Positions 2,415 through 4,463 of a DNA stretch of 4,463 nucleotides are shown here, piece after piece. The stretch's first letter is position 1, and the number at the start of each line of letters is the position of its first letter. The DNA is from a virus (Duplodnaviria; Heunggongvirae; Uroviricota; Caudoviricetes). The notes under the pieces were generated by a model that did not search any database, was not told the origin of the DNA, and saw only the letters and a list, made by a program, of their open reading frames with translations. The DNA lies in IMG/VR virus record IMGVR_UViG_2684622772_000008; one strand, given 5' to 3'. Made by a program: the position numbers and the translations under genes.

Positions 2415-3101
2415 ATGACCCCAATAAACATATTTATGACAGTTGCTGATTTCAAACGGCCCAAATTGGAGCTCCCAAACGGGGCAAACAAACTACTACT
2501 GCACTCTTGCTGTGCTCCATGTTCCGGTGAGGTGATGGAGGCGCTTCAGGCCTCGGGAATCGACTACACCATCTTTTTCTACAACCCGAACATTCATCCT
2601 CAGAAAGAGTATTTAATTCGTAAGGATGAGAATATTCGCTTTGCTGAACAACACGGCGTGCCGTTTATTGATGCTGATTACGACACAGACAACTGGTTTG
2701 AACGAGCCAAAGGAATGGAATGGGAGCCCGAACGAGGGATCCGTTGCACCATGTGTTTTGACATGCGTTTTGAGCGGACAGCGCTGTACGCCGCTGAAAA
2801 TGGTTTCAGTGTGATCAGCAGTTCACTGGGCATTTCACGCTGGAAAAATATGCAGCAGGTTAACGACTGTGGGCGGCGAGCCGTCGCGCATTATCCGGGC
2901 ATGGTGTACTGGGATTATAACTGGCGCAAGCAGGGCGGCTCGTCCCGTATGATTGAAATCAGCAAGCGCGAAAAATTCTATCAGCAGGAATATTGTGGCT
3001 GTGTGTATTCTCTGCGCGATACCAATCTACACCGCAAATCTCAGGGACGCCCTCTTATCAAAATTGGTCAACTCCACTACGGTAAAGAAGAGAAGGAGTG
3101 A
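2415..3101 (+). CDS. queH: QueH-family (DUF208) epoxyqueuosine reductase-like protein (228 aa)
   Basis: The translation contains [32 protein letters not shown] and C-terminal YCGCVYS, the conserved Cys-containing blocks I recognise as the QueH/DUF208 signature. TGA 3099-3101. No clear Shine-Dalgarno before ATG 2415; in-frame ATG 2436 and TTG 2466 are alternative starts. Confidence 0.82.
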
Positions 3102-3152: not shown

Positions 3153-3204
3153 GACTGCGGGTGCTTGAGGCTATCTGCTTCAGGCATGAACACCAAAAGG
3201 CAGA

Positions 3205-3281
3205 TAGAGAAAAGCCCCAGTTAACATTACGCGTCCGGCAAGACGCTTAACATTAATCTGAGGCCAATTTCATGCTTTGCA
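3205..3281 (-). ncRNA. sok: Sok-like antisense RNA (antitoxin of the type I TA locus); ends approximate
   Basis: On the minus strand, -35 TTGCCT (plus coords 3310-3315), 17-nt spacer, -10 TAACCT (plus coords 3287-3292). This has the same position and orientation as the sok promoter in hok/sok loci, overlapping the mok-equivalent start region. The transcript would run leftwards through the 5-bp hairpin GCGUC/GACGC at 3231-3246. The 3' end is not defined by a clean U-tract. Confidence 0.4.
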
Positions 3282-3328
3282 CATGTAGGTTAGCCTCTTA
3301 CATGCCGAAAGGCAAGGAGAAGCAGGCT

Positions 3329-3484
3329 ATGAAGCAGCAAAAGGCGATGTTAATCGCCCTGATCGTCATCTGTTTAACCGTCATAGTGACGGCACTGGTA
3401 ACGAGGAAAGACCTCTGTGAGGTACGAATCCGAACCGGCCAGACGGAGGTCGCTGTCTTCGTAGACTACGAATCCAGGAAGTAA
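3329..3484 (+). CDS. hok: Hok/Gef-family type I toxin (51 aa, single transmembrane helix)
   Basis: AAGGAG 3314-3319, ATG 3329, TAA 3482-3484. Protein MKQQKAMLIALIVICLTVIVTALVTRKDLCEVRIRTGQTEVAVFVDYESRK has a hydrophobic helix and the TRK.LCE.R..G..EVA tail typical of Hok proteins. It is very close to E. coli HokD/RelF as I recall it. Leader and trailer RNA elements are also hok-like. Confidence 0.9.
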   Translation: MKQQKAMLIALIVICLTVIVTALVTRKDLCEVRIRTGQTEVAVFVDYESRK

Positions 3485-3561: not shown

Positions 3562-3604
3562 CCCGCCCATCGCTGTGATCTCTCAGCGTTTCGGCGGGTT
3601 TTTT
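3562..3604 (+). terminator. Rho-independent terminator of the hok-like transcript
   Basis: Stem CCCGCC (3562-3567) pairs with GGCGGG (3593-3598), with inner pairing CGCUG (3571-3575) and CAGCG (3584-3588), followed directly by TTTTTT at 3599-3604. Confidence 0.7.
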
Positions 3605-3624
3605 GTTGTTTATTTCCGGTGAAT

Positions 3625-3652
3625 TTGATTCGCGCACCTTCGCAGATAGAAT
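3625..3652 (+). promoter_or_regulatory. Candidate sigma70 promoter upstream of the 95-aa ORF
   Basis: -35 TTGATT at 3625-3630, 16-nt spacer, -10 TAGAAT at 3647-3652. These are the same hexamers as the hok promoter, and the sequence after the -10 is similar (TAGAATcGACT vs TAGAATGACT). Confidence 0.4.
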
Positions 3653-3733
3653 CGACTCACTTAAGTAGCGCGCAGGGAGAAGAGGGATGGACCCCGAACA
3701 GGGGAGAGCTATTTATCTGGAAGGATTCTGAAG

Positions 3734-4021
3734 ATGAAAATCGAAGAATTGCGTGAAATTTTTAGTGAAAATGGCCTCTATGCTGTGCGCGTTGAGAATG
3801 GAGCGATTGTCAGCCATTGCCGCATTAGATGTTTGCAATCTCAACAAAGGAAGAGCGGTGCTGTGTTATTTTATTTTTGTAATGGACTTCTGACGGACGG
3901 TTTTATTTTGCGTGAGGACGAATTTGTCACATCATTACGGGTTTTGAAAGAGATTGGTTTTAAGGCTGGTTTTCTGCTTTTGCTGAAGAATAAACTCATC
4001 TACAATCTTGAGCAGGATTGA
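3734..4021 (+). CDS. Hypothetical protein (95 aa), unassigned
   Basis: GGAAGGA at 3719-3725 is 8 nt before ATG 3734; TGA 4019-4021. Codon usage looks AT-rich with AGA/AGG Arg codons. No family recognised. Confidence 0.45.
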   Translation: MKIEELREIFSENGLYAVRVENGAIVSHCRIRCLQSQQRKSGAVLFYFCNGLLTDGFILREDEFVTSLRVLKEIGFKAGFLLLLKNKLIYNLEQD

Positions 4022-4059
4022 ACTCCTGCTGTGTAACACCGTGCCACCGGAGAAAGCCG

Positions 4060-4413
4060 ATGGCACATATACAACTGGTCAAACAAACCTCTTCCGGATT
4101 ACTTCTCCCGGCGACGCCGGAGAGTTGCGATTTTCTGCATCAAATCAAAATAGGTGAGTGGATACACGCAGACTTTAAGCGTGTGTGTAACTACGCATTC
4201 CACAAGCGTTTTTTCAAACTCCTGCAACTGGGTTTCGATTACTGGACTCCGGTCGGTGGGGCGATCACGCCTCGCGAACGAAAACTGGTGTCCGGTTTCG
4301 TTGATTACCTGTGTGAATCAGTAGGCCGGGAACATACGCCAGCTCTGAGCGAAGCCGCAGAGCAATTGAGGTGTACTGGCAATAGCGGACACTACCATTT
4401 GTTCTTTTTTTAA
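4060..4413 (+). CDS. Hypothetical protein (117 aa as read); may be 3'-truncated or frameshifted at a T7 run
   Basis: GGAG at 4049-4052 is 7 nt before ATG 4060 (the ORF-track TTG at 4018 is less likely). The protein is MAHIQLVKQ...GHYHLFFF with TAA 4411-4413. The stop follows T7 at 4405-4411, and the adjacent frame is open from 4410 to the window end. Confidence 0.5.
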   Translation: MAHIQLVKQTSSGLLLPATPESCDFLHQIKIGEWIHADFKRVCNYAFHKRFFKLLQLGFDYWTPVGGAITPRERKLVSGFVDYLCESVGREHTPALSEAAEQLRCTGNSGHYHLFFF

Positions 4414-4463
4414 GCAGCCATCTGATGATATTTTTCCCTGAAGGCTGCCGGGGAGATATTCCC

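Follow-up and report, generated by a model that had tools for sequence, protein, structure and literature searches.

A Rem-family antirepressor gene and an IS600-cut DUF1367 gene at the hokD-distal end of a decayed Qin/Rac-like prophage

Identification and Overall Organization of the Region

The DNA analyzed in this study, a stretch of 4,463 nucleotides hereafter referred to as the window, most probably (we put the probability at roughly 0.92) represents the end of a decayed Qin/Rac-like cryptic prophage, carrying a rem gene, a DUF1367 gene cut by IS600, and two IS600 copies together with an IS-mediated rearrangement. On this reading, the prophage is lambdoid and of the Shigella sonnei type, and the window would cover its hokD-distal end, with IS600 at both sides. 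The two open reading frames downstream of hok, which a first-pass annotation had described as matching no nameable family, resolve into already known things, namely a Rem-family antirepressor gene (ORF1, labeled PF27490 'Rem' by precomputed annotation and matching phrog_340) and an IS600-cut DUF1367 gene (ORF2, matching Pfam DUF1367 with an E value of 1e-46). Both ORFs are in essence known phage genes, of the Rem and DUF1367 families, which is the outcome that the annotation itself had named as contradicting it.

In the ORF list, the 95-aa ORF1 occupied positions 3734-4021, and the 117-aa ORF2 ran from an ATG at 4060 to a TAA stop codon at 4411-4413, its longest form being one of 131 aa with a TTG start at 4018. 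The AT-richness of ORF1, previously judged by eye, was borne out by its GC content of 39.6%, the values of the replication genes and of ORF2 being 50-54% and 50.5%, respectively. Among the upstream genes, the ydaV-like (DnaC/IstB-type) gene contained 228 N at 1187-1414 and hence could not be judged from the window. A gene for QueH (epoxyqueuosine reductase) was located at 2415-3101 between the replication genes and hokD, and the corresponding slot of other prophages of this type (L005, L006, and L007) was occupied by a restriction endonuclease, an ABC-three-component system, or a Doc toxin. Because different genes fill the same slot in these prophages, it looks like a hot spot for cargo or defence genes. 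The hok/sok module (3159-3334 and 3272-3484) was complete, the Hok ORF matching Pfam HOK_GEF (E = 1e-22) and sok scoring 117 bits against its Rfam model, which was the only Rfam match in the window.

ORF2 Is a DUF1367 Fragment Ending at an IS600 Junction

The match of ORF2 to the DUF1367 profile (Pfam PF07105; 159.7 bits versus a cut-off of 25) was confined to profile positions 1-102 of 198, whereas intact homologues covered positions 1-198. A megablast search of complete E. coli genomes revealed 99.9% DNA identity to an intact locus, which stopped at 4366; the DUF1367 gene of E. coli FDAARGOS_944 (WP_000940336.1), showing this identity up to 4366, agrees with ORF2 in its start codon and its translation-initiation hairpin. 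Reading the two sequences base by base, the intact gene goes on with ...GAGCAATATCTGAAT..., while the window passes from ...GAGCAAT directly into TGAGGTGTACTGGC..., the terminal inverted repeat of IS600. The plus-strand segment at 4060-4366 was thereby assigned as a 5' fragment of the DUF1367 gene, comprising codons 1-102 and one further base, and the adjoining segment at 4367-4413 as a read-through tail of the cut ORF, LRCTGNSGHYHLFFF-stop, whose first codon starts from 4366 and the remainder of which is IS600 DNA. The earlier suggestion that ORF2 represents only the N-terminal portion of a larger protein was correct in this respect, the intact homologues being 199 aa in length; only residues 1-102 of the family are kept, and they are followed by 15 IS-encoded residues that the family lacks, its own sequence at this point being YLNTVATRR.... 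The identical junction peptide end, ...AAEQLRCTGNSGHYHLFFF, was present in a deposited Shigella sonnei protein (P0108). IS600 inserted after base 4366, within the DUF1367 gene; the frame runs 15 codons into the element and stops inside its own T7 run, and the ORF2 fragment is a pseudogene.

The cause originally proposed for the truncation was a different one, a 1-bp indel in the T7 run (4405-4411) that splits ORF2, with the protein going on in the neighboring frame past 4410. The run does contain the beginning of the ORF2 stop codon, ORF2 is truncated relative to the 199-aa family, and the run is the sole stretch of seven or more T in the window (the other homopolymer of such length being an A8 at 282-289). 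Homology to intact DUF1367, however, ends at 4366, 39 bases before the run, the terminal inverted repeat of IS600 begins at 4367, and homology does not resume in another frame after the run, where the sequence is that of IS600. The tail LRCTGNSGHYHLFFF is foreign to the DUF1367 family, and thousands of IS600 copies have T7 with exactly these flanks. An open frame does extend from 4410 to the window end, but it spans only 18 codons, a length that arises by chance with a probability of (61/64)^18 = 0.42, and it lies antisense to the 3' end of the IS600 transposase gene. An indel in T7 thus has practically no chance of being the explanation.

The occurrence of the junction in public data bears on another alternative, in which it would be an assembly artefact, i.e., a chimeric contig end made by the repeat. 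The window starts and ends within IS600 copies, like short-read contigs, and among the 521 blocks of public assemblies in which the exact 117-aa product was found, 440 had their longest carrying contig only in the 2-5 kb class. Such a distribution is expected since short-read contigs break at IS copies, and 16 of the blocks had contigs over 1 Mb. Contigs measuring 4.78-4.89 Mb, among them CP022457.1 and CP019689.1, contained this junction together with a complete 1264-bp IS600 and defined flanking DNA, which makes an artefact very improbable. When the contigs of one representative genome per species were scanned for the 30-nt DUF1367/IS600 junction, no exact occurrence was found, and the exact-protein look-up did recover the junction.

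ORF2 was also found to carry Cys (codon TGT, 4186-4188) in place of Arg43, a residue invariant in 30 homologues. Decay after the insertion was considered as the origin of this substitution and rejected, as Cys43 is already present in P0078, a partial but uninterrupted allele from S. sonnei. In one relative (L160, IMGVR_UViG_2627854008_000011), the sequence CCGATGGCCATAT in place of CCGATGGCACATAT corresponds to a 1-bp deletion in DUF1367 codon 3, another independent disruption of this gene. One deposited Shigella sonnei DUF1367 fragment bears the name 'irsA domain protein', and the literature on DUF1367 was found to consist of annotation mentions only.

As for the function of the intact gene, DUF1367 might be a recombination mediator of the NinB/Orf type, which would make ORF2 a truncated ninB analogue. 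The intact DUF1367 protein matched phrog_319 (E = 2e-68), annotated as 'NinB/Orf homologous recombination mediator', and the gene takes the ninB position, being the first of the nin-like region, ahead of the genes for a YbcO-like nuclease and a Q-like antiterminator. Similarity to lambda NinB (PDB 1PC6) itself was not found, however: lambda NinB belongs to a different PHROG (phrog_72), BLASTP and hhalign comparisons between the two gave an E value of 7 and a probability of 0.1%, respectively, a PDB profile search with DUF1367 found nothing, and Foldseek with the DUF1367 model placed NinB (1pc6) at rank 24 (E = 1.9, TM 0.27/0.34). Given the shallow alignment (Neff 2) and the model quality (pTM 0.54), a distant kinship could escape these comparisons. 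We regard the assignment as NinB/Orf as doubtful, with roughly one chance in four, and in the window the gene is a fragment whichever way this is decided.

IS600 Copies at Both Ends of the Window

The right-hand element was assigned from its right end (4367-4463, minus strand), which begins with the terminal inverted repeat, contains T7, and is identical to annotated IS600. The minus strand of 4410-4463 encodes the last 17 codons and the stop codon of the transposase orfB (GNISPAAFREKYHQMAA-stop). Of 5426 E. coli genomes, 2877 contained annotated IS600 that matched the segment 4360-4463 at 100% identity and a coverage of 80% or more, the matching copies being annotated as 'IS3-like element IS600 family transposase' with a programmed frameshift. 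The first such match turned out to be a different IS600 insertion whose flank merely ends in GCAAT, and it served only to define the element. At the opposite end, positions 1-76 were identical on the minus strand to annotated IS600 (L002 6196-6271) and constitute the end of the first copy; they include the left inverted repeat together with the first part of transposase orfA. The two copies were each 1264 bp long in complete genomes and had the same orientation, and the window is the unique DNA between these two directly oriented elements; it is probably because of them that the contig begins and ends where it does. The terminal sequence, the length of 1264 bp, the pair of overlapping minus-strand ORFs for the transposase, and the 3-bp target duplication at the left copy were all in good agreement with IS600 of the IS3 family, the right copy differing in its lack of such a duplication.

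The flanks of the two copies differed in kind. The left IS600 lies within the O-like (DUF1376) replication gene and has the target duplication GGT on both sides; judging from these flanks, it is a simple insertion. The right IS600 has unlike triplets at its two borders, AAT and GTT, and on its far side the 3' part of the gene for the prophage integrase comes first and modCBA next, inverted with respect to the intact prophage. This copy joins prophage DNA that is otherwise not adjacent, which indicates a secondary rearrangement. Because the far flank is inverted and a target duplication is absent, the right IS600 would also have mediated the rearrangement, for which the simplest event that we infer is an inversion between two IS600 copies.

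The O-like gene itself remains as a remnant at 77-753, its 5' end being cut by IS600. Compared with the intact prophage, the remnant reads A8 for A6 at 282-289 and has a 10-bp deletion near 419, and by these lesions it is to be classed as a multiply disrupted pseudogene.

ORF1 Is a Homologue of the Antirepressor Gene rem

ORF1 (3734-4021, plus strand) was identified as a rem homologue with a frameshifted C-terminal tail on the basis of BLASTP, phrog_340, PF27490, and dN/dS data. It exhibited 68% identity to E. coli K-12 Rem (b1561) over 80 aa (residues 1-80, E = 2e-34), and phrog_340 was matched by both proteins. ORF1 was left without a match in the local copy of Pfam because that copy does not include the newer PF27490 model, the 'Rem' label being precomputed in the protein collection. 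Pairwise dN/dS values of rem against three homologues were 0.14-0.36 at dS of 0.7-1.6, which shows, on the level of codon substitution, purifying selection on rem. The family is narrow: an exhaustive search of 1.84 billion representative proteins for remote homologues returned 38 matches, many of them fragments, and an informative domain was seen in none.

The genomic setting was likewise in accordance with a Rem-family gene, since hokD, rem, and nin-like genes occur in this order in the window, in L001, and in K-12, rem immediately following hokD and preceding the nin-like genes in both the window and K-12. The K-12 and window loci further share a conserved leader and the downstream hairpin pair described below. 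They differ in that ORF1 has a 4-residue insertion (SQQR) in the middle of the protein and a frameshifted, longer C-terminus (95 vs. 83 aa), and in that the next gene is ydfU (DUF968) in K-12 and DUF1367 in the window.

Rem of the Qin prophage has been described as a DicA antirepressor, the natural inducer of which is unknown; ectopic rem raised transcription from dicBp 165-fold and caused DicB/DicF-dependent filamentation (bioRxiv 10.1101/2023.04.14.536235). A related intact prophage, whose sequence agrees with bases 3600-4366 of the window at 99.9% identity, encodes a 135-aa DicA homologue (62% identity, E = 2e-60), the repressor gene itself being outside the window. By homology to K-12 Rem, the ORF1 product would be a small antirepressor that counters the DicA-type repressor of the prophage. 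The activity of this allele is put forward here by analogy with K-12 Rem, the only protein for which it is established and one differing from ORF1 at 32% of the aligned positions. An AlphaFold model of Rem (pLDDT 68.8, moderate) contained six beta strands and two short helices, and its comparison with PDB and BFVD yielded no solved or viral structure at an E value below 0.01. Since the model is moderate and without structural match, no fold-based support for a binding mechanism was obtained.

A promoter-like site, TTGATT-16-TAGAAT, was found by consensus scan and alignment upstream of rem (3625-3652, plus strand) and is regarded as a candidate rem promoter. In the alignment, the -10-like TAGAAT and a leader of about 80 nt were kept in K-12 Qin and two diverged prophages, whereas the -35 region varied between them. 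The leader (3647-3733) consists of the TAGAAT box, followed by GCGCGCAGGGAGAAGAGGGATGG..., and a short upstream ORF from an ATG at 3687, and it also contains a small CCCC/GGGG hairpin with a variable loop. A LexA-box-like CTG-N10-CAG was absent near and upstream of rem, in contrast to the Gifsy antirepressor genes, which have a LexA box. As the natural inducer of Rem is not known, the conserved leader may be a site at which rem is regulated.

Frameshift at the 3' End of rem

Comparison with close relatives (L175 and L176) and with the family consensus located a 1-bp loss at 3970-3973 (plus strand), where a T4 run replaces the T5 of the relatives. These have GGTTTTTCTGC and the normal end of the protein, whereas the window has GGTTTTCTGC. 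As a consequence, the rem frame shifts after residue 80, and ...SAFAEE-stop becomes LLLLKNKLIYNLEQD-stop, the last six residues being replaced by a 15-residue out-of-frame tail. Nearly all homologues end in ...KAGFSAF(A/E)(E/D)(E/D) before the stop codon, while the window ends in ...KAGFLLLLKNKLIYNLEQD. The stop codon in the normal frame of the family, a TAA that aligns to 3991-3993 on the plus strand, is bypassed here, and the shifted ORF terminates instead in the loop of the hairpin described in the next section. On this comparative evidence, the real homopolymer frameshift of the region is the T5-to-T4 change near the end of rem and not T7.

We infer that the out-of-frame tail may have an effect on Rem. 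In the most severe case, ORF1 would be a decaying remnant whose antirepressor was inactivated by the tail in the course of general prophage decay. The frameshift is at odds with the consensus in all of the diverged lineages, residues 86-95 were modeled as disordered (pLDDT below 50), and the neighbors of rem are visibly decayed, the O-like gene by the IS600 cut, A8 versus A6, and the 10-bp deletion, and the DUF1367 gene by its truncation. Against this, residues 1-80 are intact with all nearly invariant positions included, the frameshifted allele is common (82 member sequences, about 1000 contigs), and the cluster representatives P0044 and P0045 read the same alternative frame, so that the tail may be tolerated. 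Inactivation of Rem is on balance a possibility of about one in three, and ORF1 is treated here as a rem homologue with an altered C-terminus.

Hairpin Pair Between rem and the Downstream Gene

The 7-bp stem previously noticed around the stop codon of ORF1 was confirmed by folding and pair counts as a perfect one (hairpin 1; 4011-4030, plus strand), in which AGCAGGA at 4011-4017 pairs with TCCTGCT at 4024-4030 and the 6-nt loop ttgaac holds the stop codon. A perfect 7-bp stem with a loop of 3-8 nt appeared in 20% of region shuffles; since the stem alone is not significant, hairpin 1 carries weight only through the comparative data. In these, its 6-bp core was kept by compensatory changes, with three core pairs varying on both sides among 19 distinct variants: by alignment columns, pair 17-35 was GC in 9, GU in 4, and AU in 2, pair 19-33 was AU in 16, GC in 2, UA in 1, and unpaired in 0, and pair 22-30 was GC in 12, AU in 3, and GU in 2. 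The seventh, outer pair is peculiar to the type of the window. An intrinsic terminator was considered and rejected for hairpin 1, as no U tract follows the stem and the terminator scan did not report it.

Ten bases past hairpin 1, fold and alignment revealed a nearly invariant hairpin 2 (4041-4066, plus strand), formed by GTGCCACCGG and CCGATGGCAC around the loop agaaag, that encloses the Shine-Dalgarno sequence and the ATG at 4060-4062. It was common to prophages having downstream either DUF1367 or another gene beginning with MARNAKYY. The sample consists of related prophages partly collected with a pattern that lies inside hairpin 2, so the invariance of this hairpin is partly by construction; a Rem-anchored set free of this collection bias gave the same hairpin picture. 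Neither hairpin matched any Rfam family.

Hairpin 2 could keep the start codon of the next gene inaccessible until it is opened by processing or by transcription reading through, and the pair could end or stabilize the rem transcript. That the two hairpins constitute a conserved cis-acting RNA element gating the expression of the nin-like genes is tentatively proposed, at odds that we consider rather below even. Just upstream of hairpin 1, TACAAT at 4001-4006, within the conserved block CTCATCTACAAT, resembles a -10 hexamer.

Comparison With ydfU of the Qin Prophage

From gene order, ORF1 and ORF2 had been guessed to be positional counterparts of rem and ydfU, and the order cited for K-12 Qin, hokD, rem, ydfU, and ydfT (Q), was found as stated. 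For ORF1 the guess was right and fell short of the relationship, the gene being a true rem homologue (68%, E = 2e-34); for ORF2 it holds in position only. YdfU (b1560) is likewise encoded between rem and the Q-like gene but is a 349-aa protein with DUF968/HNH and without a DUF1367 domain, whereas ORF2 and its intact homologue match DUF1367 only, and homology of ORF2 to ydfU was rejected. The two arrangements, with ydfU or DUF1367 after rem, share the segment from rem to the next start codon and the first two codons (MA), and the MARNAKYY gene of many prophages, which has these codons and the ribosome-binding hairpin in common with them, is presumably of the YdfU type. In K-12 (L003, about 4590, minus strand), the start codon in hairpin 2 lies about 285 bp ahead of the start annotated for ydfU and opens an ORF (MARNAKYYNSDNS...). 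Because this upstream ORF start is conserved in many prophages, ydfU as annotated in K-12 may lack part of its N-terminus, or the two starts may be separated by a frameshift.

Implications

Much of the present result has little significance past correct annotation. It does illustrate that an IS end can mimic a frameshifted gene, with an ORF stopping in a homopolymer and a frame open beyond it, and it assigns the recently characterized Rem antirepressor function, at the level of homology, to a gene still 'hypothetical' in RefSeq records. The hairpin pair is a small regulatory lead and the only part that might repay experiment; if TACAAT at 4001-4006 were used, transcripts of the nin-like genes would start within hairpin 1. 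For the prophage itself, the frameshifted tail of the rem allele found here and in Shigella sonnei records could affect whether the DicA-type switch still flips.
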